From IMG/VR virus record IMGVR_UViG_3300036795_000133, positions 50,085-114,084 of that record: a stretch of DNA of 64,000 nucleotides; one strand, 5' to 3'. Positions 21,327 through 56,527 of the stretch are shown here, piece by piece. The number at the start of each line of letters is the position of its first letter. The stretch's first letter is position 1. The notes under the pieces were generated by a model. The model saw only the letters and a list, made by a program, of their open reading frames with translations. It had not been told where the DNA came from and did no database searches. The DNA comes from a virus. A program made the position numbers and the translations under genes.

Positions 21327-22487
21327 TCACTGGGCATCACCTCCCTCTTTTTGTGCGCCTTCCGGCGACAGCTCGCCCGGCTTCGCGTCCACGTCGTCCA
21401 CGAGCTCGACCCGCCACGCGGCGATCGTGACGGTAACGCCGGGCATCTCGCCCCGTCTCGGGTGGACTGTGTACCCGTCGACCGTCGCGAAGTCGAACGG
21501 CTCGCCGTCGATGTAGAGGCGGGATGCGGCGCCGGCGCCTTCCCGCACGACCCGGAGCGTCTTCGCGATCTTGTACGGGGTCACTGCGCGGCCCCCGTGC
21601 CCCGCCGCGCCCTGGCCCGGTGGGAGGGTGACGGCGCCGCGGCGGCCTTCGGGGCAGGCAACGGCCGCCATTCCGCCGCGACCGCCTCAAGGTAAGCGGC
21701 ACCTAGCGCCGCGGTAAGCTGCGCGTCCCTGCCCGCGAGGCCGCCCGCAGTCGCCGGGACAGGCTTCCCGTCCTCGTCCGTGACGTTCCACGAGATCAGC
21801 GAACGGCCGAGCGCCTCAGTCACGGACGCGGCATCCCGCATCATCCCCATCGGCGTGCGCCGCGCCGTGACCTCAAGGCCTGCGTACCTCGTGCCGGAGA
21901 AGTCCAGCTTGAGCGGTTCCCGGCCCGAGAGGAACGAGCCCGGCGCGAAAATGCTTGTGCTCACCGTCCTCCCGTCCTCTCGTCTCGCTCGGACTTGGCG
22001 AGCCTCCGCAGAAGCTCGTCGTTCTGGTCCATGAAAGCGGCCAGCTGTGCACGGAACCGAGGGTCAACCTCCCCGGCGAAGTCGTGACCGGCGTCGAACC
22101 GGGCGAAGACCGCGGCCGGGTCCTCGTCGTCCTCGTAGAAGCCCGCAGCTTCCTCCGGGGTCACCGTGAACTCTTCTCGCCCAGCATCCCGGACGCGTGC
22201 CACAGCCGCTCCGCCGCGCGGAACCGCTTGCGGTCAACCAGCCAGATAGCGGCGCCGTCGGCAGCGCGCGTCACGGCCAGCCGGGCGCGGACGCGGCGGG
22301 GCAGCGGAGTGCGCAGGCGCGGTTGCCTGTCCGCGACAGCACCGAGGGCCTCCGCGAACTGCTCAAGCTGGCGCTCCGGCAGGCGACCCGGCGGTATCAA
22401 CTGGTCGCCGGGGCTCAGGAAGGCGGGAACTGCGTCACTATCCCGGGTGCCTCGCAGGATCATCCCGCCGCGCGCGAAACGGGTCAC
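21327..22487 (-). other. Four small coupled ORFs downstream of portal; 21581-21964 is chaperone-like
   Basis: 21327-21584, 21581-21964 (SLISWNVTDEDGKPVP), 21961-22203, 22161-22487. Confidence 0.45.
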
Positions 22488-24051: not shown

Positions 24052-24084
24052 ACCCAAGCATCACCTCCCGCCCGCCGCTAGCTC

Positions 24085-27577: not shown

Positions 27578-29252
27578 CATTTCCCCGCACCGGCAGGTCC
27601 CGGTCATCGGCAGGAGCGAAGCCGTCGAGCCCGTCCAGTCCCCACGGGGCGTCCTCGGGGACATCGGCCGCGCGGCCCTGGATTTCGCGCATGCGGCGGT
27701 GGGCTTTCGTTTCCTCGGCCACGCCCATGTCGGCGAGGTCGGCTGAGCCGGCCCACTTCCGCACGCTGCCCGGTGAGGCGTCGCCGAGGTGCGGGACGAA
27801 GCTTTGCACCACGGCATCGCCGTCGTCCGTTGACCTGCCCAAACGCTTGTAAATGTCCTCTTTGCGCTCAACCTGGATCTTGCCGCCGGAGGTGACCTTC
27901 CACTGCGGTGCCGAAAGGTCGCCTAGGAGCATCTCGTCGTCCGGGAAGCAGATGTCCGGGTCGCTAGACGGGTCAAGCGCCTGCCTCATCGTCCACCACG
28001 CCTCACTCCGGCGGTTCGCGAAGCCGAACTCCCTTGTGCTGTCTTTTGCCTTGGACCCGCGGGAGGCGTTGAACGCCAGCACCTTCATGTGCAACTCCCG
28101 CAGCCGGTCAACCACGCCCGCACCGATACCGATCACGTCGACTACCGCGGTGTAGGAGTCGTCGGCCTCGAGGATGCCCTTCACGCGCCCGGTGGTCTGC
28201 ATCGTGTCTTCCTTCACCGACCGGCGCAGCTCGGTGATGACGGGGCCGTTGCGGAGGGCGAGGACGGTGCGGTCCTGGCCGGTGCGGGCCACATCCACCC
28301 CGACGACACGGGGCCTGCCCGCGTTCGGCCGCCCGGCCTCGTCCCAGGCGTGCCAGCGGGCTACCGCCGCCTCCGCCCACGCGAGCGGGATGACCGAGTC
28401 CTCGTCGCTGGCGTAGAACTCGCCCAGGACGCGGTTCTGGTAGATCGCCGACGCGGTACCCCACTGCCGGGCGCGCTGCTCCGCCCACTCTTCGGTGATG
28501 CGGCCCGCGTCCATGGCGTCGTCGAGCGTGACGTGGACCGGGTGCCAGTCCTCGTAGCCGGGGCGGCGGGTGCAGATGTCGTAGAAGCGGCCCTGCGGCT
28601 GGCCAGGCGTGGACAGCGCCAGGGCGAACGCCTCGGTGCCGCCCTCGCCGGAACTGGAGAACGCGCCCTCGCATGCGTCGAACGTGCCCGAGGGGATGGC
28701 CTTGGCCTCGTCGTATACGAACATCAGCGAGTCGGCGTGAGCGCCCTCGATCAGGGCCGCGTTAGCCGACGCGGCAGCGAAGGCGGCACCGTGGGCAAGC
28801 TTGAGGTTGATGTTCTGCAGCTCGTTGGCCCGGGAGAACGGGCGGCCGTCGCGGACCTTGTCCCAGCGGAGCTTCCCGGCCCACTTGTGGATCTCAGGCC
28901 AGGTGTATGCAGTCAACTGGTGCCATGACCCGGCGGTCGTGACGACTTTCCAGTCCACCCCGGCCGCGTCCCGCGTCAGGGCGAACCACAGGACGGCTAT
29001 CGCAGCCTGAGAACTTTTCCCCAATCCATGGGGGCCCCGGACGGCCTCGCGCTTGCGCTCCGGGAGCGAGCCGAGGATCTCTTCCTGGTAGACCGTCAGG
29101 CCGTCGCCGCTACCCCAGTCGATGCAGTCATGCGCGAATCCGACCGGGTCGTCGTAGTACCGGGTGATCCCGTGCTTGATCTTCGCAGCGCGGCGCTGGA
29201 GCTCCAGCAGGTACCGCAGGCGGTCAGGGGGTGCCTGAACCAGCGGGGTCAT
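27561..29252 (-). CDS. terL: Terminase large subunit
   Basis: Walker A RGPHGLGKSS, Walker B MFVYDEAKAI, coupling motif ALSTPG, nuclease VVGVDVARTGQDRTV and DDGDA. Confidence 0.95.
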   Translation of the reverse strand: MTPLVQAPPDRLRYLLELQRRAAKIKHGITRYYDDPVGFAHDCIDWGSGDGLTVYQEEILGSLPERKREAVRGPHGLGKSSQAAIAVLWFALTRDAAGVDWKVVTTAGSWHQLTAYTWPEIHKWAGKLRWDKVRDGRPFSRANELQNINLKLAHGAAFAAASANAALIEGAHADSLMFVYDEAKAIPSGTFDACEGAFSSSGEGGTEAFALALSTPGQPQGRFYDICTRRPGYEDWHPVHVTLDDAMDAGRITEEWAEQRARQWGTASAIYQNRVLGEFYASDEDSVIPLAWAEAAVARWHAWDEAGRPNAGRPRVVGVDVARTGQDRTVLALRNGPVITELRRSVKEDTMQTTGRVKGILEADDSYTAVVDVIGIGAGVVDRLRELHMKVLAFNASRGSKAKDSTREFGFANRRSEAWWTMRQALDPSSDPDICFPDDEMLLGDLSAPQWKVTSGGKIQVERKEDIYKRLGRSTDDGDAVVQSFVPHLGDASPGSVRKWAGSADLADMGVAEETKAHRRMREIQGRAADVPEDAPWGLDGLDGFAPADDRDLPVRGNVRSWR

Positions 29253-29808
29253 TGCGGGCCAGCTGGGACTCAAGGTCAGCAATCTGAGACTCGACCATGT
29301 CGGCCGTGATCACCTCGACGCGGGACTTGGCGGGGGCGTCGTAGCCGTGCATCCTGGCCCGCCGCTCGATCAGCCGCAGGATCGTGACGCTGTGCACCGC
29401 GATCGGCCCGTCGTCGAGGACGTCCTCGAACACCGGGATCGGGTTGCCGTCCGCGTCCAGCTTCTCGATGCCGTCCTCGTGGCGCTCCACCCCGGTGAAC
29501 CGGCGGACTACCCGGCCGTTGGAGACGGCGACGTGCTGCCGTTCCAGGGCTTCCCAGTTCTTCTCGATCAGCCGGTCGAGGCGCTCGAAGTCAATGCGCT
29601 TGGCCTGCTCCGCGCCGGGGGTGACGATCATCTCGTAGGCGCGGTCGATGGCCTCGCTGACCTTGCCGCGTGACGCGAACCCGAGCTCGGCGGCGATCCG
29701 CTCGTGGGTCCAGCCCTGCCCGTGGAGCTCAGCGGCGCGCATATCGCGGGCCGCCGATGCCGGGGTGCGGCGGAACTGGCCGTTGGCGCCGCGTGTTCCC
29801 CCGGTCAT
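29224..29808 (-). CDS. terS: Terminase small subunit
   Basis: N-terminal HTH (GWTHERIAAELGF), LIERRARMHGYDAP; directly upstream of terL. Confidence 0.8.
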   Translation of the reverse strand: MTGGTRGANGQFRRTPASAARDMRAAELHGQGWTHERIAAELGFASRGKVSEAIDRAYEMIVTPGAEQAKRIDFERLDRLIEKNWEALERQHVAVSNGRVVRRFTGVERHEDGIEKLDADGNPIPVFEDVLDDGPIAVHSVTILRLIERRARMHGYDAPAKSRVEVITADMVESQIADLESQLARNDPAGSGTP

Positions 29809-42781: not shown

Positions 42782-43897
42782 ATGAAGTTCCCCGGCATCT
42801 TCAGCCGGCTCGGCGCGAGCCGGGGCAACATGCTCGTCATCGGCACCGGGTACGGCATCTACGCGCTTTCCCTGCTGCTCCAGGGCGAGCGGTGGTCCCG
42901 GACCCCGGCGTACCACAACCTTCTCGCGATCATGCCCGCGTGGGGCTGGGGCGCGGCCTTCGGCGCCGTGGCGGCCCTCCTGCTCGCCGCCCTCGGCTTC
43001 TACGGGAACCGCGCGCTGTCCGTCGCCGCCCTCACCGCCGCGGCGGCCATCACCGTCCCCTGGACCCTGGCGTTCCTCGTCCGGTGGCTGACCAACAACT
43101 CCACCACCCCGGAAACCTGGGTGTCGTGGGCCGTCAACGCCTACCTGCTGGCCAGATCCGCTGTCCTGCTCGACTACCGGGAGGTGCTGGTCCCGTCCCG
43201 CCGCCGCCAGGACGGCGACGGTGCCTGACGCGGTTTCCCTCACCGAGCTTGTCTCCGTCCTGGGCGGCATCGCGGCCACCTGCGTTGTCCCCTTCGCCCT
43301 CGCCAGGCGCCGGTCGGCCGACAACCAGGCCGCGACCGCGGTCCGCAACTGGGCCGAGCTCAACGAGGCGCTGCAGGCGGAAATCCGCCGGGTCACCAGG
43401 GAGCTTGAGCGGCAGCGCACCGACTACCAGTCCCAGCTCAACGACCTGCGGGGAGATTACCAGTCTCAGCTCGACGGGGCCCGCCGGAGGATCACCGAGC
43501 TGGAAGCCGAGGTCGCCGCCCTGCAGCGGGCACTGCGGGGGGCGGGACCTTGACCGGCGGCGGGCTGCTGCTGCTGATGCTGCTCGTCTCCTGGACGTCG
43601 CTGGTGCTCCAGGCGGCGGCGGCACTCCACCTGTGGCTACAGCGGGCCTCCAGTACCGCCGAGAGGCTCGCCGGGCACGGCTACGTCCGCACCGCCGCCT
43701 GCCGGGTCCTGGCCGCCGCCGTCTACTCTGCCGTGGCGCTGCTGGCCGTGGCCGGCGTCCGCATACCGGGTGCGGGGACGCTCGGCCCGGAGGCCCTTGT
43801 CGTATTCACGGCGGTCCAGGGGATCTGGCTCGCCAACTCGGCGCTGGACATCAGGGTCCGGAGCAGGCTCGCACAGGAGGAGGAAAGCGAGAAATGA
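42782..43897 (+). other. Three membrane-protein genes, holin candidates (42782-43228, 43221-43553, 43550-43897)
   Basis: Multi-TM proteins and a TM plus coiled-coil protein directly upstream of the endolysin. Confidence 0.6.
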
Positions 43898-43916
43898 TCA
43901 CCTTCGGGAGGTGCAC

Positions 43917-44669
43917 GTGACACTCAGCATGCCGGACTCTATTTACCCGGCGAACATGCCGAAGGGATACGGCCAGTACCTCGCCTACGTTGACGGTGAG
44001 CGATCCAAGGACGCCGATGCCGTCCGGTCCATGTTCGCCGGGGCGCGCATCCTCACCCTTACCGTGCTCGGCGGGAACGCCGTCGCCGACGGGTGCGACA
44101 TGGAACCCGGCGACCTCTCGCCCGCGTCGGCCGCGGCGTGGCTGCACGGGCGGATCCGGGCAGGGCAGGTGCGGCCGGTACTGTACGCGAGCCGCGACAA
44201 CGTGCCCGGGGTACTCAGCGCCATGGCCGGGCTCGGCGTCTCACGGCAGCAGGTACGGATCCTGTCGGCCCACTACGACGGCGAGCATGTCTGCTCGCCC
44301 CGGGCGTGCGGCTGGATGCTGACCGCGGACGGCACGCAATGGAGTGACAGTTTCCCAGGCGTCGGCGGGTCCAGGATTGACATGTCCCTGCTCGCCGACG
44401 ACTTCTTCTCTACCGGCTCTACCAGTCCTACCCAACTCAACTGGACGGAGACGATTGTGCAGCAGCTACCTGAGCTCAGGCAGGGCGCGACCGGGACGGC
44501 CGTGCGCACCGTCCAGGGCCTGTGCGCGGCGCGAGGCCATGCGGTGACCGTGGACGGCTCGTTCGGCCCGGCGACTCTAGCCGCGGTCAAGGCCGCTCAG
44601 GCAGCGGGGCGGGTGACCCAGGACGGCGTAGTCGGCCCTGTGACCTGGGGTGTCCTGCTCGGCGTCTAG
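43917..44669 (+). CDS. Endolysin: GH25/DUF1906-like barrel plus peptidoglycan-binding domain
   Basis: YLAYVDG..DGCDMEPGD..RPVLYAS..DGTQW..IDMSLL; LRQGATGTAVRTVQG..VDGSFGPAT..QDGVVGPVTW. Confidence 0.8.
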   Translation: MTLSMPDSIYPANMPKGYGQYLAYVDGERSKDADAVRSMFAGARILTLTVLGGNAVADGCDMEPGDLSPASAAAWLHGRIRAGQVRPVLYASRDNVPGVLSAMAGLGVSRQQVRILSAHYDGEHVCSPRACGWMLTADGTQWSDSFPGVGGSRIDMSLLADDFFSTGSTSPTQLNWTETIVQQLPELRQGATGTAVRTVQGLCAARGHAVTVDGSFGPATLAAVKAAQAAGRVTQDGVVGPVTWGVLLGV

Positions 44670-44690: not shown

Positions 44691-45854
44691 ATGGGCGTAA
44701 GCCTTTCGCTCAGCCTCAGCCCGGCCTCAGGCGTCTTGCCGGGGCAGGTGGTAACGGCGGTCTACACGGTCTCGGGAGACAACCCGGTCCCCGCCGCGAC
44801 CGTCGCCACGACTAGCGGCGAGGTCACGGTCGGCGGGACTGAGTACGAGGAGGTCACCACGATCTCGTCGCTCTCCGTCCCTGCTGCGCCGGTGACTTAC
44901 TCGACTCCAGTGTGCAGCGGGCTCAGATTCGCCCAGACAGGCCAGCCGAACACCTTCACTGCCGTGGCCGGGGCCAGTTTCGGGAGCGTGGTGTCGGGAT
45001 CCGTCATCGTCAAGGGAACAACCTACTCCGCGACCGCCACCCTCTCGGCGGGGACGCCTGTAACGCCTCCGCCGTCCGGAACGGTCCCGTACCCGGCTGC
45101 CCTGGCGACGGGACACACGCTGCTTAACCAGTACCTGCCCGCCGACCTGTACTCGTGGCGCTTCATGCCGGGCACGGCTAGCACTCCAGTCACCAACGGA
45201 TCTGGCGTGACCGAGAACCCGAATAGCCCCCGCAACGTCTCCGTCACCACCGACGGCGGCCTCAGCGTCCTGAAGCTCGCGGTCACCAGCACCGCCGATT
45301 GCGGTGTCATCCAGTCGCCGGGCACGTACCCGACCTCGAGCGGCGTTATCGAGGCCCTGGTCAAGTTCTCCGGGTTCACGAACGCGAGCGGTCACTTCTT
45401 CAGTGCGTGGAGCTCATTCTGGTTGTACGGGGCCGATTGGCCGGCTGGGGGTGAGGTTGACGCCGTGGAAACCCAGTACGGCAACAGCTTCGTCTCCTAC
45501 CACTACGGGTCCGGGAGCAGCAGCGAAGCCACGACCGATCCGTGGATCTACCCGGCCAAGACGGTTCAGCTTCAGCCGAAGAACAGCACGACCGCCCCGG
45601 CTGCGCCGAACATCGTTCCTGACCAGTGGACTCACGTCACGCTCGCGTTCGGCAAGGACGCAGCGGGCGACTTCAAGTGCGACGTGTACTACGAGGGCAC
45701 GCTGTACTGCACGATCGCCGGCCCGTTCGTCACAGGGCAGCCGATGCTCGTGACGGCGGGCACCAGCTTCGGGGGTGCCGTACTCGGATCCGCTCAGACG
45801 CCTTACGACCAGCCTGGCAACGTCGCGATCCAGTACATCCGGGTGTTCAGTTAG
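44691..45854 (+). CDS. GH16 glycoside hydrolase with N-terminal beta domain
   Basis: WSSFWLYGADWPAGGEVDAVE (ExDxxE catalytic motif), IQYIRVF terminus. Confidence 0.85.
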   Translation: MGVSLSLSLSPASGVLPGQVVTAVYTVSGDNPVPAATVATTSGEVTVGGTEYEEVTTISSLSVPAAPVTYSTPVCSGLRFAQTGQPNTFTAVAGASFGSVVSGSVIVKGTTYSATATLSAGTPVTPPPSGTVPYPAALATGHTLLNQYLPADLYSWRFMPGTASTPVTNGSGVTENPNSPRNVSVTTDGGLSVLKLAVTSTADCGVIQSPGTYPTSSGVIEALVKFSGFTNASGHFFSAWSSFWLYGADWPAGGEVDAVETQYGNSFVSYHYGSGSSSEATTDPWIYPAKTVQLQPKNSTTAPAAPNIVPDQWTHVTLAFGKDAAGDFKCDVYYEGTLYCTIAGPFVTGQPMLVTAGTSFGGAVLGSAQTPYDQPGNVAIQYIRVFS

Positions 45855-45870
45855 CACGGCAGGCGCTTAG

Positions 45871-45918
45871 CAACGCGAGAGCCCGGCTCCCCTCCTTCGG
45901 GGCCGGGCTCTCGCGTTG
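45871..45918. terminator. Hairpin between convergent operons
   Basis: 17-bp perfect stem CAACGCGAGAGCCCGGC / GCCGGGCTCTCGCGTTG. Confidence 0.8.
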
Positions 45919-46118
45919 CGCGGGGTTTCAGGGCCGGCGCGACCGGGGCGCGGAAGTCTCCGCGTGCCAGCGGCGGCGGAGGTCCTTCGGGGGGACGGTA
46001 AGGCTCGCCTGGAAGCACAGGTAGGCCGAGCCCGCGATGAGCGCGGCGACGATGGCGCCTCCGATGATGGCGAACAGCATCCGGGATTCCTTCCGTAAAC
46101 GATCTTGATGTTCCGCCC

Positions 46119-46448
46119 CGGTCCGCGTCGCTCAGGAGCGGTCTTCGCCCCGGTCCCCGCTGGCGGTCCCGGTCCGGTCCTCAGGGCGGTCCGCCTCATC
46201 CTCGGCGGGGCGGTCCGGACCCAGGCGGCGGCGCAGCTTGCGGCCGTAGCCCTCGCTGACGCCCAGTTGGCGCGCGAGTTCCGCGCCGCTCATTGTCAGG
46301 TCCGTGGCCAGCAGCTTCAGTGCGCGCGCCTCAAGTTCAACGTCGTCCTCGGGAGCAGTCTCGGTGCTGGACCGGGGGGCGGTCCCGGGCCGCGCAGGAG
46401 CGGTCCTGGACCGCCGCGCGGGACCGCCCAGCTTCCGCTCTAGGACCG
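46119..46448. repeat. Cluster of CGGTCC/GGACCG repeats
   Basis: CGGTCC at 46119, 46151, 46164, 46170, 46175, 46187, 46211, with more copies in both orientations at 46369-46448. Confidence 0.55.
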
Positions 46449-47079
46449 CCGTCTTCGCGGCTGCCTTCTCCGCATCGGACCGGGCAATGGCGAGGGCCTC
46501 CGCAGCGTCCGCGAGAGCCTGGTCGCGCGCCTCAATCTCGGTGCCTGCCCGCGCCCGCAGGTCGCTCATCGCGGCCTGGTGCGCGGCGTTATCACGTTCC
46601 CGCGAGGACCGCTCCGCGTCCGCCGCGGCGAGCAGTTCCGCCTCCCTCCGCGCGACCGCGGCAACGGCCTGCGCGGCGGACGGCCCGTTCATGATGAAGT
46701 ACGCGGCAAGCAGTTCCGCCCCGTCGAGGAGCGCGCCGAACAGCAGCGAGAAGTGCGGCGGGGCGGCAGCCAGGACCACGTCCCCGGTGGCGCTCGCTGA
46801 CAGGAACATCGCGGCGCCCATGATCAGGTACGCCCCGGCCTTCGCGGGCCAGGGCGCGTCCCGCCACTCGGCGACGATCTCCAGGACGAGTACCGCGATC
46901 AGGAGCGGCGCGACCCCGTACAGCACGGCCAGTTCCCAGGGCATGTGGCCGAACTTGACCGAGTGGTAAACCTGGAACGCCATGGTGGTGCTGCCCATGA
47001 CGACGGTGACGATCCACGCTGAGGTCCGGGCACGGCGCAGCGGGGCGCCTGCGGCTTCATCTGATCCCATGTCGGACAT
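46132..47079 (-). CDS. Spd-like (DUF2637-type) membrane protein with coiled coil and C-terminal HTH
   Basis: Four TM segments, then a coiled coil, then DLTMSGAELARQLGVSEGYGRKLRR. Confidence 0.7.
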   Translation of the reverse strand: MSDMGSDEAAGAPLRRARTSAWIVTVVMGSTTMAFQVYHSVKFGHMPWELAVLYGVAPLLIAVLVLEIVAEWRDAPWPAKAGAYLIMGAAMFLSASATGDVVLAAAPPHFSLLFGALLDGAELLAAYFIMNGPSAAQAVAAVARREAELLAAADAERSSRERDNAAHQAAMSDLRARAGTEIEARDQALADAAEALAIARSDAEKAAAKTAVLERKLGGPARRSRTAPARPGTAPRSSTETAPEDDVELEARALKLLATDLTMSGAELARQLGVSEGYGRKLRRRLGPDRPAEDEADRPEDRTGTASGDRGEDRS

Positions 47080-47161
47080 CGTGACGCCTTCCTTGATCGT
47101 TCTCAGGGATTCGGGGCGACCGCCCGGCCCGGGGTAGCCGGGCGGTCGCGTTCTGGGGGGT

Positions 47162-47488
47162 TCAGGCGGCGGCAGGGTCGGAGAACTCCGCCTCGAGCGC
47201 GGCCCGCTGGTTGGCACCGAGGCCGCGCAGCCTGCGCGCCTGGTCGATGCCGAGGCGGGCCATGATCTGCCTCGCGCGGACCTTGCCGACACCGGGCATC
47301 GCCTCGAGGACCGCGGTGACCTTCATCTTTCCGATGGTGTCGTTCCCGCCCGCCTGGGCGAGGACCGCGGGCAGGGTTGTCGTGCCGTTCTTCAGGCAGG
47401 CCTTCGTGCCTGCGCGGGCAGAACGGGCCGCCTTCGCCTTCTCGAGGGAGGCGGCCCGCTGCTCGGGGGTCATGGGTGGTAGTGGCAT
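47162..47488 (-). CDS. mihF: Actinobacterial integration host factor (mIHF/sIHF)
   Basis: LPPMTPEQRAASLEKAKAAR..IGKMKVTAVLEAMPGVGKVRARQIMARLGI..RRLRGLGANQRAALEAEF. Confidence 0.92.
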   Translation of the reverse strand: MPLPPMTPEQRAASLEKAKAARSARAGTKACLKNGTTTLPAVLAQAGGNDTIGKMKVTAVLEAMPGVGKVRARQIMARLGIDQARRLRGLGANQRAALEAEFSDPAAA

Positions 47489-47536
47489 TGGTTCCTCCTG
47501 TTTGAACTGCGATTCATCACTGTGAGTAGTTGTTTT

Positions 47537-47670
47537 CTTGAGCGGGAAGGGGCGCTCAAGCTTGAGTGGGGTCTTGAGCGTGGCTTGAGCGGATCCTTTG
47601 AGTGCCGCTTAAGCTTCGTCGCCCCTACGCGCGGGCGGGCGCGCGCGGGCGCGCGCGAGGCCCGCTCAAG
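47537..47670. repeat. 8-bp repeat cluster (CTTGAGYG), candidate clt locus
   Basis: CTTGAGCG at 47537, 47573, 47584; CTTGAGTG 47561; TTTGAGTG 47597; inverted CGCTCAAG at 47553, 47663; CGCTTAAG 47606. Confidence 0.7.
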
Positions 47671-47681
47671 GATGGCACTCG

Positions 47682-49781
47682 TCACTGAGTGTCGCCTTCC
47701 CCCGGGGGAGGGGTCAGCATCCAGCGAGCGGCGGCCCGTTCGCCGACGACGTAGGCGGCGCCCTTGCCGCGCAGGTTCTCCAGCCAGGTCCGGGCCGTCC
47801 ACTTCTTCACGTCGAACCTCGTCGCGACCGCGCTGATCGTCGTGCCCCCCTCGAGCATCTCCAGCAGCGGGCCGAGAGCCTCGCCGGGCACCTGCGCCGC
47901 CTCGCCGACCTGCCGCCACCCCTCAGCCGTGAGCGCCGCCAGTGCCTCCGGGTCCGCCTGAGGGGGAGCGGGCCTCGCCCGGCCCTCCTCGATCGTCCTG
48001 CGCGCGGTGCCGAGCTTCGCGGCGAGGGCGTCGAGCCGCCCCCGTTCCCTGTCGTCCATTTCCGTCTCCCACCTCTGGAGGGGGTCTTCGCCCTCGAGCA
48101 CGGTTCCCTTCGCCGCGGGGACAGCCGTCTCCGTGCCGTCACCCGGTTCCTGCGCCGGCACGGCGGACGGGCCCGCGGTCATACCCGGCCCGCCGTCCGT
48201 CTCCGCCGGGTTCTCGCCTTGGCCGCGCGCCCACCTGGCGAACACCTCGTCCTTCAGCAGAGCCTCGTAAGCCTCGCCGAGGTACTCCGCGCAGGCACCG
48301 GAAATCTCCGGCTGGGCGAAGGCGCGCTCCTGGGCGAGCTGCTCCACGAAGGCACCGTGCCCGGCCGCGTTCGGGTGGAAGACCCATGTCCGGCCGACCT
48401 GCAGGCCGCCGCCGAGTCGCTCGACCTTCCACACGCCCGGCTTGCCCTCGCCGTAAGTGGACATGTCAGGGCCGGCGAGGCTGCCCGCGTGGCGGGCCTC
48501 GTTCGAGTTCTGAACCAGGCCGGTGCAGCGCACGTTGTCCTGGGACCGGGCCTTGGGGTCGGTGTACTCGCGGGTGTTCCGCTGGCCGAGGTGCACGTAG
48601 CCGACGCCGTGCGAGCGGCCCTTGGTGACGATCGTGGCGATGTCCTCCCGCAGGGGCCCCAGCGCGCTGTCGCTCTCGTCGTTGAAGATGATGATCGCCG
48701 GGTGCGCGGGCGAGGGGGCGTACTGGCCGCGCTTGAAGTTCTTCGTCCGCCACTCGATGACAGCGGCGATAACCTTCAGGACAGCCGCGGCGCGAGACTT
48801 CTGAGCCGGGCCGTAGGCGGTCAGCCAGCAGGCCGGACCCCAGCTCTCCACGTCCTCATGGCCCTTGACGGACAGGTTGAGGTGCACCGCCAGGGCGTCG
48901 TCGCAGGCGGTCACGTGCTCGAAGAGGTCGTCCTCCAGAACGCCTTTGCCTCCCCCGGAATTCGCGGTGACGCTGACGCGCCTGGCGCCGTTCTCGTCGT
49001 ACAGGGGGACGGTCAGCGGGTCGCCGGTCTCCGGGTCCTGGCCGATAACCGCCTCGTCGAGGATGCTACGGGCCTCCGGCAGCCGGATCTCCGGCTCCTC
49101 GCACACGAGCGGGTGCAGGAGCACGCCGGCCCACGGGTCGATGCGGCGGACGGAGATCCGGATCCGCCCGGCGAGGTGGTGGCCCATCACCCGGACACGG
49201 GACAGGGGAAGGTTCTCCGCCTCCGCGATTACCTCCTCGAGGGCACGGCCGACAAAATGGGACGCGCGCTTGCCGGTGCCCTTGGTGCTGACCGTGTAAA
49301 GCTCGCCGAGGCGCGTCTGCCGGAACTCGAGCAGGTGACTGCCGCCGAGGTGCCAGTTACGGGAGCGGCCGAGCCAGTCCGCGCGGGCGTCGCGCCACTC
49401 GCGGGCGGCGGTGACGGCGTCGTGCCTGTGCGCGGCCCTGGACGCGGCGAAGGCGAAGACAACCCAGGCGGCGGTCAGGGGAACAGCGGGCCACCAGGCA
49501 AGCGGGCCGAAGCGGTCAGCGGCGGTCAGCCAGGCGCCGCCGATCAGGACCCACCACGGCAGCGAGTCTGCGACGCCGTCCCGCCGTCCCGCGGTACCCC
49601 ACGCGAGGGCGACGGCCAGGGCGGTGGCGCCCCCGAGGGGGAGCACCGCGTGGACGCCGGCGAGCCGCATGACCTCAGCGGCCGTCCACGTCACCGCGGC
49701 GGCGGGCAGCACGGCGGATGCCAGGCGCTCCGCCGGGGCACGGCGCAGGTCCGGCACCTCCGTGCCCCAGTCGCCGTTCAC
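47682..49781 (-). CDS. TraB-like FtsK/SpoIIIE DNA translocase
   Basis: N-terminal TM segments; IGQDPETGDPL, Walker A-like ANSGGGKG, IIIFNDESD, IVTKGRSHGV..GQR; C-terminal winged HTH. Confidence 0.8.
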   Translation of the reverse strand: MNGDWGTEVPDLRRAPAERLASAVLPAAAVTWTAAEVMRLAGVHAVLPLGGATALAVALAWGTAGRRDGVADSLPWWVLIGGAWLTAADRFGPLAWWPAVPLTAAWVVFAFAASRAAHRHDAVTAAREWRDARADWLGRSRNWHLGGSHLLEFRQTRLGELYTVSTKGTGKRASHFVGRALEEVIAEAENLPLSRVRVMGHHLAGRIRISVRRIDPWAGVLLHPLVCEEPEIRLPEARSILDEAVIGQDPETGDPLTVPLYDENGARRVSVTANSGGGKGVLEDDLFEHVTACDDALAVHLNLSVKGHEDVESWGPACWLTAYGPAQKSRAAAVLKVIAAVIEWRTKNFKRGQYAPSPAHPAIIIFNDESDSALGPLREDIATIVTKGRSHGVGYVHLGQRNTREYTDPKARSQDNVRCTGLVQNSNEARHAGSLAGPDMSTYGEGKPGVWKVERLGGGLQVGRTWVFHPNAAGHGAFVEQLAQERAFAQPEISGACAEYLGEAYEALLKDEVFARWARGQGENPAETDGGPGMTAGPSAVPAQEPGDGTETAVPAAKGTVLEGEDPLQRWETEMDDRERGRLDALAAKLGTARRTIEEGRARPAPPQADPEALAALTAEGWRQVGEAAQVPGEALGPLLEMLEGGTTISAVATRFDVKKWTARTWLENLRGKGAAYVVGERAAARWMLTPPPGEGDTQ

Positions 49782-50701
49782 GCCGCCTGCCCGCCCTGCG
49801 GCGCGCCGCCGTCGCCGAACCAGAAGCGGTTGGCGGGCAGGGGGGCGCCGTCGGCCGCCTCGCGGAGGTCGTCGTGGATCAGGTGGTACCGCTTGCTGAC
49901 CTGCGCCGCATGGGAGGCCAGCTCGGCGATGTCGTCGGCGAACTCGTAGTGGGCGGCGACGTAGGCCGGGTGGAGGCCCGCGCCGCCCTCGCCCAGGTTC
50001 TCCGTGCGGGCCATGACCGCCTCAGCCCAGGTGAGGATCCCGGCGGCCTCCCCGTCCATGTGCTCGCACAGGTCGTCTTCGTTCTCCGGGTCGAACTCCG
50101 CCGCCTCGCCCGCCACGGCCGCCCACGTCCGGGGAACGATGACCCCAGCCGCCTCGAGAGCCACCGCCACGTCGGCGGGGGCGGGGGCGTCGCCGAGCGC
50201 CGGGTCAGCGTGGATGGACGGAACGCCGGGGACCGAGCGGCGCCACGGGGGGACGCCGGGGGTGGCGCGAACGGGCCGGGGGGCGGTGCCCGGTGCGGCG
50301 GGCGGCAGGGGCTCGCGGCGCATGAGGCCTGCGAGCTCGCGCACGCCTTCGCGGGCATTCCGCAGGGCGTCCCGCACCTGGTCGCATAGCAGCGAAAGGA
50401 TCAGGCGCGTCGCCCCGGCCTTCCCGAACTTAGGGTTCCTGGCAGCATGCCGCCACACAGACCAGCACCGCACGCCCACAACCGCCAGCGGTCCCGCCAG
50501 CAGAGACGCGTCAACCAGTACCGGCAGAACGCCGAGCACGGTCAGCGGGACCATCGCAGCGGAGATAAGGATCAGCAGGCCAGTCCAGCTGCGCGCGTCC
50601 CGCCACCCGCCCGTCCGGGCCATCTGGGCGATACCCAGGATGATGACGCCCGAGAAGAAGGCGAAGGCCCCCCACATGGCAAGGGTGAGAATCGTTCCCA
50701 T
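49778..50701 (-). CDS. Membrane protein coupled to the traB-like gene
   Basis: Three TM segments plus an acidic helical C-domain; GTGA overlap. Confidence 0.6.
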   Translation of the reverse strand: MGTILTLAMWGAFAFFSGVIILGIAQMARTGGWRDARSWTGLLILISAAMVPLTVLGVLPVLVDASLLAGPLAVVGVRCWSVWRHAARNPKFGKAGATRLILSLLCDQVRDALRNAREGVRELAGLMRREPLPPAAPGTAPRPVRATPGVPPWRRSVPGVPSIHADPALGDAPAPADVAVALEAAGVIVPRTWAAVAGEAAEFDPENEDDLCEHMDGEAAGILTWAEAVMARTENLGEGGAGLHPAYVAAHYEFADDIAELASHAAQVSKRYHLIHDDLREAADGAPLPANRFWFGDGGAPQGGQAA

Positions 50702-50702
50702 G

Positions 50703-51230
50703 TCAGCACACCTCTCCGTAACCGTTGCCGCTCCACGTCAGCAACTCGCCTGTGAAGCTAGAACCGCAGATACCCGCGCCGGAGCGGAGCGCCGCAACGA
50801 TGAGCGGGTAGCCGCCGAGCAGCGTCGCGACGGTCGCCTGCACTCCCTCGGCGGCTGACGGGTAACTCCGGACCCCGGCACCGTTGAACACCGATGCGCC
50901 GGGCGCAGGCTCAGTGGTGTCGAGGGGGTTGTTCGCCGCGACGGGCGGCCACGGGGTCTCGTGCCGCACCCATGCCTCCGCTGATCCGACGTTCGCTGCC
51001 GTGACGGGGGCACCGAGGCCGGCGAAGACCGCAGACATGAACGCCGTCTCGCTTCCCCCGGTCACGGCTGTAACGTGCGCGGGCCGCGCCTTCGCGTGCG
51101 CGGAGGTGACGGCGTGCGCCCCGGCCGAAACTGCCAGGACCGTGCCCAGGGCGAGGCCGGCAACTGCGCCCGCGTCGCTGCGGCGCCTGTACGGGGAGCG
51201 GTAGCGGCGGGTGCCGCGGAACGCGGTCAT
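50703..51230 (-). CDS. Secreted lysozyme/transglycosylase-like protein
   Basis: Signal/anchor, then AWVRHE..NNPLDTT..GVRSYPSAAEGVQATVATL. Confidence 0.6.
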   Translation of the reverse strand: MTAFRGTRRYRSPYRRRSDAGAVAGLALGTVLAVSAGAHAVTSAHAKARPAHVTAVTGGSETAFMSAVFAGLGAPVTAANVGSAEAWVRHETPWPPVAANNPLDTTEPAPGASVFNGAGVRSYPSAAEGVQATVATLLGGYPLIVAALRSGAGICGSSFTGELLTWSGNGYGEVC

Positions 51231-51444
51231 CAGCGCCACCTGTTCCTGCCGAATATGCCGATGATCAGGTAGGCGGCGGGTATGCCGATGATCGTGACGG
51301 CGAACGCGGTGACGGGGCTGGCCGGCAGGATCCGGTGGCCGCCGGAGATGAGGCCTGTGGTGACGCCGGCGACGCTGATGCGCCACATGACGATCCCGAG
51401 GGCGACCGCGAGGACGGTGACGGTAGTCCGCTCTTTCACGAGGC

Positions 51445-52041
51445 TTACGCCCCCTTCCGGCTAGGTGCAGGGTCGGTGAAGCCGACGACAGCATTCAGCC
51501 CGGTGCGGGGGGAGGCTGCAGGTCCGTAGCCTTCCTGCCGGACGTACGTGCCCGCACCGAAGGCGTCGATCATCGTGTGCCTTGCCGGGTCGGCGACGAT
51601 CCCCACGTGCCCCGGTGCCGTGGGGGTGCCGTCGGACCCGGCGAAGAACACAAGGTCGCCCGCGACCGGGCTGGTGACGTGCCGCTCGCTGGCCCACTGC
51701 TGCTGCGAGGTCCGCTCGATCGAGATGCCGTCCGCCGCGTACGCCTCCATCGCCAGGCCCGAGCAGTCCATGCCCGCGTCGCTCGTCCCGCCCCAGAGGT
51801 AGGGCACCTTGCCGACCTTGGAGCGGGCGAAGGCGACCACGGCGGAGGCGGCGGCGTTTGCTGTAGCCGGGGCAGTGCCGTGGTGAGCGTGGTGGGTGAC
51901 TGCCTTCGTCCCGGCGCCCGCCCCGGCAAGCAGGACCGCACCCGCGATCACGACCGGGAGCACACCGCTGCCGTCCTTGCGGAACTTGTACGGATAACGG
52001 ATCCGGTAGCGGCGCGGGAGCGGGTAGCGGTAGGCGGTCAT
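51445..52041 (-). CDS. NlpC/P60 peptidoglycan endopeptidase with membrane anchor
   Basis: VPYLWGGT..DCSGL..GDLVFF..GHVGIV. Confidence 0.92.
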   Translation of the reverse strand: MTAYRYPLPRRYRIRYPYKFRKDGSGVLPVVIAGAVLLAGAGAGTKAVTHHAHHGTAPATANAAASAVVAFARSKVGKVPYLWGGTSDAGMDCSGLAMEAYAADGISIERTSQQQWASERHVTSPVAGDLVFFAGSDGTPTAPGHVGIVADPARHTMIDAFGAGTYVRQEGYGPAASPRTGLNAVVGFTDPAPSRKGA

Positions 52042-53569
52042 CGGCGGTACCTCCGGCCTTTCCGGCTCACCGCGCGCCGCTCCGGCCCGCTCGTCAGGTG
52101 CCACGTCCCGCAGGCGCACGGGTACGACCTGAGCCCCGTAGCCGCTGTCGCGCCCGCCTCCTGCTCCGTGCTGAACCCCCGCTTCCACGGGGTAAGGCAT
52201 TCGGACCTCCCCGCCGTCCGGGGATCCCGGTTCTGCTGCCGCAGCCTCTGGTGACGCCCCCGCGCGGTCATCACGCGTTCCTCTCGTTGCGCATCCGCCG
52301 CCAGCCGGAAACGAGTAGGCAGAGGGTGTAGATAGCGGCGACGACGGTGAACAGCGCGACCGCGTTGCCCGTGGGCGCTGCGGCGACCTGCGCGTAGTCG
52401 CCGGGCAGGTCGCGGGTCAGGTGCAGCGGCGTAGCCGGGCCGATCGACAGGGTCGCCGTCCACGACCACACGGCGGTCACGGCCAGAGACAGGACTGTGC
52501 CTGCGGTCAGGGCGGCCCGGGTAGTCATCAGGACCTCCGTCGTGCGTGCGCTGGACGCAGGGCGTCGGCAATCAGTTCTCCCGGGTAGCCGATGGCGGCG
52601 AGGCGGCGCGACTCGGCGTCCTGCGCCTGCATTGCGCGGATCAGGGCGCGCTCGGCTTTCGGGTCGGGGTGCCCGGTGCGCTCGATGATGGCGTGCGCCC
52701 TGGCCCCGAGGCGCCAGTAGGCGTCAGCCAGTCCGCGCAGCTTCTTGTACGGATCCCGGGCGGTCATCAGGACCGCCCCTGCCGTTCGCGCCAAGCGCGC
52801 TCGGTACGGTCGAGGCGGTAGCTGTACGTCCCGGTGGCACGCTTGCGCTCAACCCGGCACCAGATCTCGCAGGCGGCGATGAACGCCAGGAAGGCAACGC
52901 CAGTGGCGCCGAGGCCCGCCCAGTTCCGCGTGTCCGCGAAGTGCAGGCCGAACGCGAGGACCATGATGCCCGTCACTACGCCGAGCGGGAGGCCGACGAC
53001 TGCCGGGTGCCGCGAGGCGAGCCCGGGGGCGCGCTTCACCGCCCGCTCCCGAACGGGTAGCCGCTGGCGCGCGGCGCTGGCTTCGGCTTGCTTGCGCCCC
53101 AGGTGCGCAGCAGCAGCACGACGGTCAGCAGGGTCAGCACGGCAAGGGCGCCGTACAGCTCCATCGTGCTGTGCTGGTGCGCCCGCGTCTCGCGGTGCCA
53201 GGTCCTGATGATCCCCGGGAGGCGCTTCCCGAAGTAGATGTCGGCCGCGACGACTGCCGTGACGAAGAGGTGCTTCACGTGCTTCAAGGTTTTCCTCCGG
53301 TGATGACGGGGCGCGGTCGGGTGACCTGGCCCGCTGGTGCGGCTCCCGGGGGGCGCCGCCGTTGCAGTTGAACGGCCGCCCTGCATCTGCCTGCGGATCC
53401 TCGCGGCCTCCCGCGTGACGTGCGCCAGCTCCCTCTCGACCCCGGCCCGGTCGTAGTGGGCGGTGTAGCGGTCGGGGCGCATCACGCCGCTTGGGTAGCT
53501 GAGCGCTTCCCGCATCAGCCCGGCGCGCTCCTCCAGGCCTGCCAGCCGGTGCTCCTCTGCGCGGCTCAT
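52038..53569 (-). other. Small ORFs including several membrane proteins
   Basis: 52038-52271 (Cys/His motif), 52271-52528, 52528-52767, 52767-53039, 53036-53569; 51230-51439 is similar. Confidence 0.5.
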
Positions 53570-54003
53570 GCGACTCGCTCCGCCAGGGCGGCGCGCACTC
53601 TCTCGCCGCGTTTGCGCAGCAGTACAAGGTGGCGTTCGTGCGCCCGCTGCTTCCGGTCCTGGCGCCGGAAGTACAACTCGGCCGCCTCGGCGAGGATCAC
53701 GGCAACCGGGCGCACGGGGACGCGCTCGCGCTCCTCGCCCAGTTCCCTCTCCGAGAGCCCCGCCCAGGTGCCGTGCAGTTCCGGCTCGGCGAGAGCGTGC
53801 CGCAGGCAGTCGGCTCTCACAGGGCAGCCCAGGCAGACGCGGCGCGCCTGGTCGGTCGCCTCAGCGGCACCGTCGCCCTCGGCGAAGAACAGCTCAGGGT
53901 CCGTGTACTGGCAGTCGGCGAGCCGCGTCCAGTCCCAGGGCGTCTCCGGTTCCAGCAGGGGGACGGCCGCGCCGGGGCTCCAGGCGACAGCGCGGGCGCT
54001 CAT
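53566..54003 (-). CDS. WhiB-family Fe-S transcription factor
   Basis: ADCQYTDPELFF..CLGCPVRADCLRHAL..GTWAGLSERE. Confidence 0.9.
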   Translation of the reverse strand: MSARAVAWSPGAAVPLLEPETPWDWTRLADCQYTDPELFFAEGDGAAEATDQARRVCLGCPVRADCLRHALAEPELHGTWAGLSERELGEERERVPVRPVAVILAEAAELYFRRQDRKQRAHERHLVLLRKRGERVRAALAERVA

Positions 54004-54269
54004 GCCGCACCGCTCGTCAGGCTCGGGAGCGCGGCGTTCCGCTCGTCGGGGGTCGTCCCGCCCCAGACACCCCACGCCTGGCGGGTGGAGACGGCGTAGT
54101 CGCGGCACGGGCGGCGGACCGGGCAGGTGCCACAGGTCGCTATCGCGGTGGCGGCCTGCGCCTCGTACGCGTCGGTACCGGGCGCGGCGAGCGGGAAGAA
54201 GTCGTCGCCCGGCAGGTCAAGGCAGGCGGCGCGGTCCTGCCACCCGAGTGCGGTCGCTGAGGCGCTCAC
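54000..54269 (-). CDS. WhiB-family Fe-S transcription factor
   Basis: WQDRAAC..FFP..CGTCPVRRPCRDYA..GVWGGTTPDER. Confidence 0.92.
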   Translation of the reverse strand: MSASATALGWQDRAACLDLPGDDFFPLAAPGTDAYEAQAATAIATCGTCPVRRPCRDYAVSTRQAWGVWGGTTPDERNAALPSLTSGAA

Positions 54270-55819
54270 GACACACCCACCAGGGCGCGCCACTTGCGGT
54301 TCGCCTTCTGCATGGCACCGCGCCCGCTGAAGGTCTCGACGAACTTCCCTGTGACACAGTCGTAGACCCCGTAGGACCCGCCGCCGAGGGGCGACACCGC
54401 GTACCGCGCCATCAGCCGGTCTTGTTCCGACCCGCGCCGCGCATCGCCCTTGCGTCCGGTCATGGCTGAACCTCCGGCGGGTACATCTGGTGGGAGCGCT
54501 GGTCAACCGGGCAGGTGCCCCGAGCCCCTCCGCCGGGAAACGGCACCAGGATCGCGTCAGAGTGTTCCGGGCAGTAACAGGCAGGGGCCGGGCGGACCGG
54601 GGTCAGGAGGGCGGTCATGGCGTGGCCTCCGCACAGTCGGGCCTCCCGCGCAGGGGCGCAGGGCTGAGCGTCGCGACCGGGCAGGGCGCGGAGGGCGACG
54701 GGCTGAACATCGTGGGCACGTAGACCGCGGGCTGCGAGTGCCCGTGGCGGACCACGAGGATGACGGCTGCGATCACGAGGCCGATGGCGAGCCCTATCGC
54801 GGCACCGCGGATCAGGTCGGCGGCGGCGGTCATGACGAGATCTCCGCGTAGTTGAGGCAGTGGACGTAGACGCGCGCGATGGGCCGGCTACTGCCGGTTC
54901 CGCTTACGGTCCCGGTCCCGGTGATCTCAAGCTGGGCGTCCGGACCGTAGAACTCCGCCGCCTTCAGCAGGGCAGCGGACCGCATCTCGCTGATGCTGTC
55001 GCCGCGGACTGTGGCGTCGAAGAAGTCCGGGCCCTCGGTGCGGCGCGCGCCGATCTCGTCCAGCGCGGCGTGAAGGCCGGCGGCGAACGAGGTGGAGCGC
55101 CTGTCCTGCCCCCAGCCGTTGGCGAGGTCACGGAGCACCCGGTAGTCGGACTGGGCGAGGGAGGAGGTCATGCCGTCACCTCGGATACCCGGCTCGCGGC
55201 GGCGAGGATGACGCCGAGCGCCTCAGCCTCCGGGCTGCCGATGGGGAACGCCTCGGATGTGGCGAGGGACGCCTCAAGCAGCGTCGTCTCGGCGCGGTCC
55301 GCGTCACCCGACTCGGCGAGCAGGACGGCCAGCGAGGTGAGGTTGAGGGCGTCGTACAGGGCCGGGGGATTCACGACCGCTCCCCGGCGGTGCGCTGGGC
55401 GGGGACGGGAGCCCCGTCGAGGTCGAGGAGGAAACGGCACTTCGCCTGCGTCAGCCCCTTGTCCTCAAGGTCGGCCATCGCCCCGGCTAGCTCGGTGAGG
55501 AGCATGTCCCCTTCGACCGCGTCGGCGCGGATGTCGGCGGAGGTGATGCCCTCCGCGATGCAGTGCATGGCGAACTTCCGCGCCGACCCGGGGAGCTTGA
55601 AGCCGGCACGGACATGGGACTGGTAAGTGGCTGCGGCTGGGAGGTCGGCTACTGTGGTCACGGACTTTCTCCAATTCCGGTTGGGATGGTCCGGGCCGTC
55701 GCGGCGTGAGATGTCGCGGCGGCCATTTGCGTTCTCGGGGACCGGCGGCGGGAGCAGTCACAGGACTGCCCGGCCCAGAGGACCTTCCCGCAGTTGGTGC
55801 AGACCCTGGTCTGGTTCAT
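54266..55819 (-). other. Six or seven small coupled hypothetical ORFs
   Basis: 54266, 54615, 54830, 55168, 55371, 55658 with 4-nt overlaps. Confidence 0.5.
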
Positions 55820-56022
55820 GCCGCTGCTTCTGCCTCAAGCGCTTCGCCGGCGGCCTGTCCGTTCCCGAGACGGGAGGCCAGTTCGTCGGCGGGCGGTAGC
55901 GCCTGGTCGAGGAGACCGTCAAGCACATGGCTCAGCGGCTGGCCCTTGAGCAGGGCCAGCATGCGCAACCGGAGGTCAACCGGACGTGTGATCCGGCTGG
56001 ACAGCGGCACGTCACACGCCAT
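55816..56022 (-). CDS. Ribbon-helix-helix-like first gene of the leftward operon
   Basis: LSSRITRPVDLRLRMLALLKGQPLSHVLDGLLDQAL. Confidence 0.6.
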   Translation of the reverse strand: MACDVPLSSRITRPVDLRLRMLALLKGQPLSHVLDGLLDQALPPADELASRLGNGQAAGEALEAEAAA

Positions 56023-56133
56023 GAATTCGGTCCTTCCAGCGGTCTTGATTACTGCATTGCAGACAACATAAGCACAACTCATGTATATATGTCAAGGCAC
56101 GCGGAACCCCTGGTGAGGGACACGCCGGACCGG

Positions 56134-56158
56134 TCTAGTTGACCTGTACTTACCTAGA
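56134..56158. promoter_or_regulatory. Imperfect palindrome, candidate GntR operator
   Basis: TCTAGTTGA-N7-TTACCTAGA in the divergent intergenic region; -10 TAGGCT at 56174. Confidence 0.45.
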
Positions 56159-56185
56159 TCACTTGCCGCCCTCTAGGCTGTGTAC

Positions 56186-56527
56186 ATGGCAGGTGAGGAC
56201 TCCTGGAAGTACGAGCGCATAGCAGGCGACTTGCGCGGCGGCATCAGGAGCGGCAAGTACGCGCCGGGCTCGCGCCTGCCGTCCAAGAGCAAACTCGCAG
56301 CGCGGTACGACGTATCCGACGGCCCTGTAAACGAGGCGCTGAAGGTGTTGCGCGGCGAAGGGCTGATCGAGACCCGGCAGGGCAGCGGGATCTTCGTCTG
56401 CGACCCGCTGCCGGAAGTGGCGCTGTCGGAGTACGAGACTGTGATGGGGCGTATCGACGGCCTGGCCGAGGAGGTCAGGCAGCTACGCGGGGAAGTGGCA
56501 GCGCTGAGGCAGGCGAGGGGGGCGTGA
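56186..56527 (+). CDS. GntR-family repressor (KorSA/KorA-like)
   Basis: YERIAGDLRGGIRSG.Y.PG.RLPS...LAARYDVS..PVNEALKVLRGEGLIETRQGSGIFV; divergent from the transfer operon. Confidence 0.88.
   Translation: MAGEDSWKYERIAGDLRGGIRSGKYAPGSRLPSKSKLAARYDVSDGPVNEALKVLRGEGLIETRQGSGIFVCDPLPEVALSEYETVMGRIDGLAEEVRQLRGEVAALRQARGA

Follow-up and report, generated by a model that had tools for sequence, protein, structure and literature searches.

Phages of filamentous bacteria face hosts that are divided into compartments by cross-walls, and the locus described here raises the question of whether such a phage can carry, and use, a plasmid-type machinery for moving double-stranded DNA between cells. The locus lies in a stretch of 64 kb (hereafter the window), which comprises bases 50,085-114,084 of a single 124,995-bp IMG/VR virus record (IMGVR_UViG_3300036795_000133), and consists of a leftward operon of 10 kb which meets the phage lysis operon at one end and faces a divergent GntR-family repressor gene at the other. 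A preliminary description, made from the sequence, had proposed that this operon makes the element a possible hybrid of tailed phage and conjugative element. We are highly confident of the anatomy of the module. That the operon is a DNA-transfer or spread module which moves phage DNA between cells, so that the phage spreads without virions besides its particles, we consider probable; the step from possessing the kit to spreading by conjugation is one which we infer, and spread without virions is a plausible outcome of it.

The central protein of the operon had been described as a TraB-like translocase with a C-terminal winged helix-turn-helix (HTH). Searches of sequence families and of PDB sequences gave nothing for it, and it was recognized by its fold. 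In an AlphaFold2 (AF2) model (pLDDT 81) the protein has N-terminal transmembrane (TM) helices (residues 14-118), a beta-rich domain, a RecA core of the FtsK type and a C-terminal winged HTH (residues 633-689). Foldseek comparison of this model with the PDB placed 6t8g, the FtsK motor, at the top (E 6e-12), followed by TcpA, a conjugative coupling protein, and next by EccC. In the Swiss-Prot set of AFDB the top match was Tra of pIJ101 (P22409, E 4e-17, aligned over residues 9-698), ahead of FtsK, while TraSA of pSAM2 ranked fourth amid FtsK proteins. The model and the alignment with Tra both contain the membrane anchor and winged HTH of a TraB protein, and a motor of the FtsK/SpoIIIE type was recognizable by fold but not by the sequence model PF01580. 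The best full-length structural match being conjugative, the ATPase was not found to group with non-conjugative FtsK proteins. By megablast the module had no match in collections of phages and plasmids; tblastn of the pump matched no record of the phage collection, and its only two matches, both weak, were Streptomyces megaplasmids. A total of 111 homologues of the pump was collected, many of them on contigs of 97-137 kb, and this family extends the TraB-type pumps to sequences missed by current family models.

With respect to the active site, the pump reads GGGKGV (window 48940-48960) in place of a canonical Walker A, while Walker B (DESD) and the conserved GQR are intact. Across an alignment of 110 sequences Walker A carries GKG in 48 (this pump and 47 relatives), GKD in six, GKA in one and GK followed by Ser or Thr in 55. 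The Lys, the Walker B DE and the GQR were invariant, but for NE in the six GKD variants. In all six of these (P0047, P0051, P0054, P0055, P0065 and P0066) GKD is accompanied by N-E in place of D-E in Walker B. The two changes together resemble a compensatory exchange of the carboxylate that binds Mg, and such a pairing suggests an active site under selection. One further homologue (P0048, 1102 aa) carries an inserted LAGLIDADG domain (PF14528).

A second component of the proposed kit is a clt-like array of the 8-mer CTTGAGYG, which ends 12 bp from the stop of the traB-like gene. The motif occurs 12 times in the window, where 4.3 occurrences are expected, and six of these matches fall within the array; when one-mismatch variants are included the array holds 7-8 copies in both orientations. 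No other 8-mer cluster in the 22-kb neighbourhood scored as highly. A repeated motif specific to each locus was found directly after the traB-like stop in seven of seven homologous loci, although it was weaker in one (L038). Near-identical recognition helices go with a common core TTGAG in the window, in the related complete phage G001 and in the related contig L005. TraB binds 8-bp repeats in clt (PMC4447253), and clustered repeats near traB at a conserved position are the pattern described there for clt and TraB; from this likeness, binding of the array by the pump is predicted. A readable 8-mer array, the presumed docking site, goes with each pump, and these combinations would offer a natural set of protein-DNA specificity pairs.

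The gene downstream of the array encodes the product which had been described as a Spd-like protein with TM, coiled-coil and HTH parts, and this architecture was recovered in an AF2 model: four TM helices, a coiled coil formed by one helix some 100 residues long, and a C-terminal three-helix HTH. As in Spd/SpdB2 proteins, the four TM helices and the coiled coil are encoded next to traB. The fold matched AFDB clusters of DUF2637 proteins together with an entry named 'Protein spdB', distant homologues carry PF10935, and the HTH matched a DUF2637 protein encoded downstream of traB in L038 (E 4e-9). From model and homology the product appears to be a divergent protein of the DUF2637/SpdB type. Between it and the array lies the mIHF gene already named in the preliminary description, which is found at the matching position in L005. 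Upstream of the pump, and translationally coupled to it, a 307-aa membrane protein shares its C-terminal domain with the p388 partner gene found upstream of traB in chromosomal loci resembling the integrative and conjugative elements of actinomycetes (AICEs), as in L026:8744-9910 (BLASTP E 5e-12). Two wall hydrolases had been proposed for the next genes; the NlpC/P60 endopeptidase stood, but the second (50703-51233) had no match to a hydrolase family and corresponds to what in relatives is the C-terminal domain of NlpC/P60, standing here as a gene of its own with a duplicated signal anchor. In relatives NlpC/P60 is a single open reading frame (ORF) of about 330 aa, whereas here (50703-52200) there are two genes in different frames, both beginning with a similar MTAxR... 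signal anchor; on sequence this looks like gene fission with a duplicated leader.

The operon as a whole (45928-56022) comprises 17 ORFs with actinomycete bias in G+C content at third codon positions (GC3) and many 4-bp overlaps of start and stop codons. Hydrophobic segments of TM type are found in nine of the 17 products, in keeping with the small membrane proteins of the preliminary description. A WhiB gene occurs at the matching relative position in the AICE-like locus L026 and in phage L005, and a GntR gene is likewise divergent in L005, L025 and L026; as with Kor and TraR, a regulator of the GntR family here diverges from the transfer operon. The AT-rich control region which separates the operon from the GntR gene (56023-56179) presumably holds the Kor operator and promoters, and no GntR operator could be named within it. 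The first operon gene appeared ribbon-helix-helix-like by eye and had no family match. At the other end, a hairpin had been reported where the lysis and transfer operons meet. It is present between the stops of 44691-45854 (+) and 45928-46080 (-), and separates these convergent operons, but its stem is a perfect 18 bp rather than 17.

Family searches of 45.9-58.6 kb revealed no integrase, xis or rep gene, and the two junctions had no direct repeat of at least 12 bp in common, as the preliminary description had noted of integrase and att repeats there. Because of these absences the module is not a separate AICE, which would have its own int and xis, attP, rep and bounding att repeats, and an independent element at 46-57 kb was rejected.

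The genome which carries the module is that of a large temperate tailed actinophage, complete at 125 kb and circularly assembled from a soil metagenome. Comparison of the ends of the record showed them to be identical across 127 bp, the signature of circular assembly; in IMG/VR they are classified as direct terminal repeats, and completeness by CheckV is 100%. The G+C content is 69%, and the gene map was based on the strong GC3 bias. Terminase, portal, major head, tail, lysis and integrase genes are all present on the closed replicon, a head-morphogenesis protein also being encoded inside the window. Outside the window lie a 2129-aa ORF, taken from its size alone to be the tape measure, further genes of tail size, and a tyrosine integrase (genome 22,948-24,420) about 70 kb from the module, together with genes for an RDF-like Gp3, for RtcB and RlaP RNA repair and for TnpB. 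No tRNA genes were found in the whole genome. ParA and ParB partition genes (PF13614 and PF02195) were absent from it, and a phage-plasmid of the ParAB type was rejected. By terminase, the closest isolated phage is Streptomyces phage TurkishDelight.

As the record comes from a single short-read soil metagenome, its phage-module join might be chimeric, the assembler having fused a phage with an AICE or plasmid of one soil sample, and contigs from an independent assembler (Logan, same run) do break at 46655-46684, inside the module. Other Logan contigs nevertheless span both junctions, one of 17.4 kb crossing 45.9 kb and one of 14.1 kb crossing 56.5 kb, with no differences from the record and an even depth of 81-98, so that no coverage break was seen at either position. 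Three further independently assembled contigs from other samples have the same junctions. The palindrome TGCACGTGCA, whose recurrence at 60901 had been taken as a sign of one replicon, occurs eight times in the 125-kb genome, where 0.18 copies are expected, and flanks the module on both sides. With independent contigs and relatives from other samples carrying the junctions, the chimera was rejected, and we regard it as most implausible. The positions of TGCACGTGCA in the window are 11605, 11630, 24117, 31065, 42108 and 60902, mostly at gene boundaries and none within the module; it is probably the operator of a phage regulator.

A search for related phages with traB in the same position, which the preliminary description had put forward as a check, was positive. 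The complete genome G001 (124.5 kb) is collinear with this one and has the module at the matching site; identity between the two is 96% for the major head protein and 50% for the TraB-like pump. In L005 (126.8 kb) the synteny matches, with genes for GntR, WhiB, NlpC/P60, TraB partner, TraB, mIHF and Spd-like protein and a convergent lysin, and in L025 (135 kb) the module adjoins lysin and terminase genes. G002 (132 kb) has another terminase, portal and tape measure/tail set, and the module is still present. Across related phages of 124-137 kb the module is kept at one site, and from these comparisons it appears to be a resident, vertically inherited part of the phage rather than an inserted element. 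The block might instead be a decayed AICE or plasmid fragment, acquired by an ancestral phage and now passive cargo. It lacks its own int, xis and rep, its NlpC/P60 gene is rearranged relative to relatives, and in G+C it stands highest among 10-kb stretches of the genome (71.9% versus 68.8%, exceeding all but one of 115 10-kb windows tested), an offset seen likewise in G001 and G002. Passive cargo is nonetheless improbable: all ORFs are open with coding GC3 bias, the site is kept while the TraB-like proteins have diverged to 45-70% identity and is occupied in a structurally different phage as well, the phage clade of the pump comprises roughly 85-100 sequences with conserved motifs, and the 8-mer arrays change along with the protein without decay.

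Among named isolates, homologues of the pump were found by genome searches on Streptosporangiales chromosomes only. These searches gave 11 loci, nine of them in named Streptosporangiales isolates and the other two on contigs from the metagenome-assembled genome of an uncultured Actinomycetota. The chromosomal gene order is Nudix, GntR, then p388, TraB and p175, then Prim-Pol, Xis and Int, which is the AICE layout (PMC2440964); the p388-TraB-p175 triad is conserved in ten of the loci. In the tree a single clade (SH-aLRT 98) unites the chromosomal sequences and is separate from the clade of large contigs; all large-contig sequences lie outside the chromosomal clade but one, from a 97-kb phage-like contig. 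A second and stronger array, TCTCCGCA in eight copies, was observed in the Microbispora locus (L026:15860-16100) after the Prim-Pol and 532-aa genes; it probably represents replication iterons or attP arm sites.

If the module acts as a transfer system, the divergent repressor of the Kor/TraR type would keep the operon off. On derepression, the TraB-like protein would insert into the membrane through its N-terminal helices and assemble as a ring of the FtsK type, its C-terminal winged helix would dock on the CTTGAGYG (CTTGAGCG) repeats downstream of its own gene, and the motor would drive the phage genome, as double-stranded DNA, into an adjoining compartment of the hypha or into a mycelium in contact with it. 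The pore-type DUF2637/SpdB-like protein, the small membrane proteins, NlpC/P60 and mIHF would aid passage through the septal wall and DNA bending. Infection or lysogeny would then spread without virions, in addition to spread by particles. More tentatively, we suggest that the uncultured soil actinophage clade of 97-137 kb as a whole consists of dual-mode elements, with a divergent third TraB-like lineage, shared with Streptosporangiales AICEs and bearing a non-canonical GKG P-loop, which docks on the phage clt array and pushes replicating or excised DNA through cross-walls and hyphal contacts.

Several observations weigh against transfer between cells as the function. The pump matched nothing in Pfam (PF01580 FtsK_SpoIIIE included), PHROG, NCBIfam or the PDB sequences, and the TM-scores of its model to Tra and FtsK are only 0.34-0.45 at 13-16% identity. 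ATPase activity is not assured because Walker A lacks a Ser or Thr after the Lys in the pump and in about half of the family. Since Spd proteins have no defining sequence signature, the label 'Spd-like' rests on architecture, as modelled, and on transitive homology. Family searches of the window gave no match for a Nudix (Pif-like) gene, which is present next to GntR in L005 and L026. A run search placed the sequence in one soil-metagenome run only, and with no isolate found to hold a close copy of the genome there is neither an isolate nor a known host; the host need not be Streptomyces, which bears on the step from kit to conjugative spread. FtsK-like genes are, moreover, frequent among Streptomyces phages, where they have been connected with host development instead (10.1101/2024.02.16.580700; PMC13587820).

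The module might accordingly be real and phage-borne without moving phage DNA from cell to cell, the FtsK-like protein serving, together with its partners in the membrane, in manipulation of host septation or sporulation, in segregation of genomes into compartments or spores, or in exclusion of superinfecting DNA, with a motor which might be catalytically weakened. Besides the altered Walker A and the missing FtsK_SpoIIIE match, the WhiB developmental regulator in the operon fits such a role, FtsK- and WhiB-like phage genes having been treated as mimics of host developmental factors (PMC13587820; 10.1101/2024.02.16.580700). We consider this unlikely, as the arrays kept in position after the gene in seven further loci fit a docking site of the clt type, the nearest chromosomal relatives lie in AICE-like elements with int, xis and rep, and the ATPase is encoded together with a protein of the Spd/DUF2637 type, a wall hydrolase and a GntR repressor. 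The invariant Lys, Walker B DE and GQR and the pairing of GKD with the Asp-to-Asn change argue for a maintained active site. Inteins usually sit in important genes, and the LAGLIDADG-type insertion in one homologue speaks in the same direction. Results contradicting a single phage replicon with a transfer kit were looked for, and none was found.

The features of the Streptomyces TraB/clt/Spd/Kor kit are described in PMC4447253 and PMC2440964: Spd proteins and TraB form a spreading complex, and KorSA is a repressor of the GntR family (PMC2440964). As in pSVH1, pIJ101 and pSAM2 (TraB, clt, Spd, TraR/Kor), the present module has a membrane-anchored pump of FtsK fold with a C-terminal winged HTH, an array of 8-bp repeats beside the 3' end of its gene, a four-TM protein of the Spd type with a coiled coil, and a translationally coupled operon of small membrane proteins with a divergent GntR repressor. 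It differs from the classical kit in the undetectable sequence similarity of its pump (no PF01580, two weak megaplasmid tblastn matches), in the GKG of Walker A, in repeats lying in both orientations, in the mIHF, WhiB and NlpC/P60 genes inside the operon, and in its carrier, a 125-kb tailed phage instead of a plasmid or AICE. In fold, architecture and context the module agrees with the kit, while sequence models fail. FtsK with its gamma domain and FtsK orienting polar sequences (KOPS) has the motor fold and a C-terminal winged HTH reading 8-bp motifs in common with the pump; here, however, there is no long linker, the gene belongs to a mobile element, and the motifs lie in one array rather than along a chromosome.

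The nearest non-phage relatives of the pump (32-39% identity) are in the AICE-like elements of Streptosporangiales (Microbispora sp. H10670, L026; Planobispora, Planomonospora, Streptosporangium and Nonomuraea). These have in common with the phage module the upstream partner gene, the layout of GntR and WhiB, and an 8-mer array after the stop; they differ in being about 15 kb long with their own Nudix, Prim-Pol, Xis and Int and no virion genes, and their pumps form a separate clade with the canonical GKT. Among phages, the Streptomyces plasmid-phage pZL12/phiZL12 (Zhong et al. 2010, as cited in PMC3583192, PMC4487206 and PMC7157519) is, in these citing accounts, similarly one replicon with virions and a conjugal tra locus (one major tra gene with two genes beside it). 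The same accounts present it as a 90-kb ParAB plasmid-prophage and a singleton, whereas the present phage has a tyrosine integrase, no ParA/ParB and a clade of many metagenomic relatives. Homologues of SpdB2 occur in phiC31 and VWB (PMC4447253), and FtsK-like genes in Streptomyces phages Mandalore, Naboo, Jaresh and AndoPrime (10.1101/2024.02.16.580700, PMC13587820). These are likewise borne by actinophages, but as single genes of conjugation or FtsK type, whereas here the pump, docking repeats, Spd-type protein, wall hydrolase and Kor-type repressor stand together in a conserved block. The pZL12 tra locus, the SpdB2 homologues and the phage FtsK-like genes are its precedents. If the module does transfer DNA, a plasmid-type pump would move a phage genome without adsorption, capsids or lysis, and one infection or lysogen could convert an entire mycelium or an adjacent colony with no particles involved. 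For soil actinomycetes this would change the view of host range, of how lysogens spread and of gene flow, and it would give the FtsK-like genes often seen in actinophages a concrete, testable function. The features of the locus and the arrays of its relatives are collected in Table 1.

Table 1. Phage genes and module features of the window (window coordinates), and repeat arrays at homologous loci.
Feature	Position	Strand	Basis or remarks
Major head protein	7570-8481	-	phrog_1650, E 1e-67; 96% identical in G001
Portal protein	22484-23854	-	phrog_113, E 2e-35
Terminase large subunit	27561-29282	-	phrog_2, E 2e-34; 57.6% identity to Streptomyces phage TurkishDelight
Endolysin candidate, convergent lysis operon	43770-44669	+	PHROG endolysin families; PG_binding_1
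Bidirectional terminator-like hairpin	45870-45919	.	Perfect 18-bp stem, 45870-45887 / 45902-45919, read from sequence
Last operon gene, 50-aa protein, one TM helix	45928-46080	-	Conserved in G002
Spd-like protein, 315 aa from internal ATG	46132-47079	-	AF2 model, pLDDT 75
mIHF-like nucleoid/DNA-bending protein	47162-47488	-	PF22525 H2TH_5, E 6.4e-31
clt-like array of CTTGAGYG	47537-47670	.	6 exact copies, both orientations, ends 12 bp from traB stop
TraB-like dsDNA translocase, 699 aa	47682-49781	-	AF2 model, Foldseek, motif alignment
307-aa membrane protein, translationally coupled to traB	49778-50701	-	C-terminal domain shared with AICE-like partner gene
Anchored 176-aa protein	50703-51233	-	Domain fused to NlpC/P60 in relatives
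NlpC/P60 peptidoglycan endopeptidase, N-terminal signal anchor, likely start 52041	51445-52200	-	PF00877, E 2.4e-16
Two small coupled genes (85 aa with TM helix; 88 aa)	52271-52794	-	85-aa gene conserved in G001 and G002
177-aa protein, C-terminal TM segment	53036-53569	-	
WhiB-like transcription factor	53566-54108	-	PF02467, E 2e-19
Four small overlapping ORFs (65, 52, 72, 113 aa); 72-aa product with one TM helix	54266-55171	-	
First operon genes (96 aa, 68 aa)	55371-56022	-	No family match
AT-rich divergent control region, operon/GntR	56023-56179	.	Sequence read; putative function
GntR-family repressor, Kor/TraR position	56180-56527	+	PF00392, E 1.4e-19
G001 array	After traB-like stop		CACTCAAG x4
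L005 array	After traB-like stop		AACTCAAA x3
G002 array	After traB-like stop		GGAAACGT x3
L025 array	After traB-like stop		AACGTGCG x5-7
Microbispora AICE-like locus L026 array	After stop		ATC[AG]CCTC x6
L039 array	After traB-like stop		GAATCGTCCC x5-6
L038 array	After traB-like stop		Weaker TTCACGG set

Further observations were made on the structural and early genes. A 50-aa ORF (23905-24057) lies directly upstream of the portal gene (22484-23854) and is a separate ORF in G001 too (74% identity); as it is kept separate there, the two-piece portal layout is probably native. The terminase genes of G001 (L009/L010, G001:48026-50815, 941 aa) and G002 (L022:6460-9531, 1023 aa) contain in-frame insertions of about 1 kb or longer, which from their sequence look like inteins. 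An RtcB RNA ligase gene (L001:18282-19481) adjoins a gene for an RlaP-type nucleotidyltransferase (L002:54-854) in the early region (genome 18.3-20.9 kb), and a protein resembling the PHROG 'RNA ligase' is encoded among the head genes (window 13092-14357). The TnpB gene (OrfB_IS605 / Cas12f-like; L004:1831-2955, genome 114830-115954) lies just to the right of the window, and distant copies of TnpB are present in G001 and G002.

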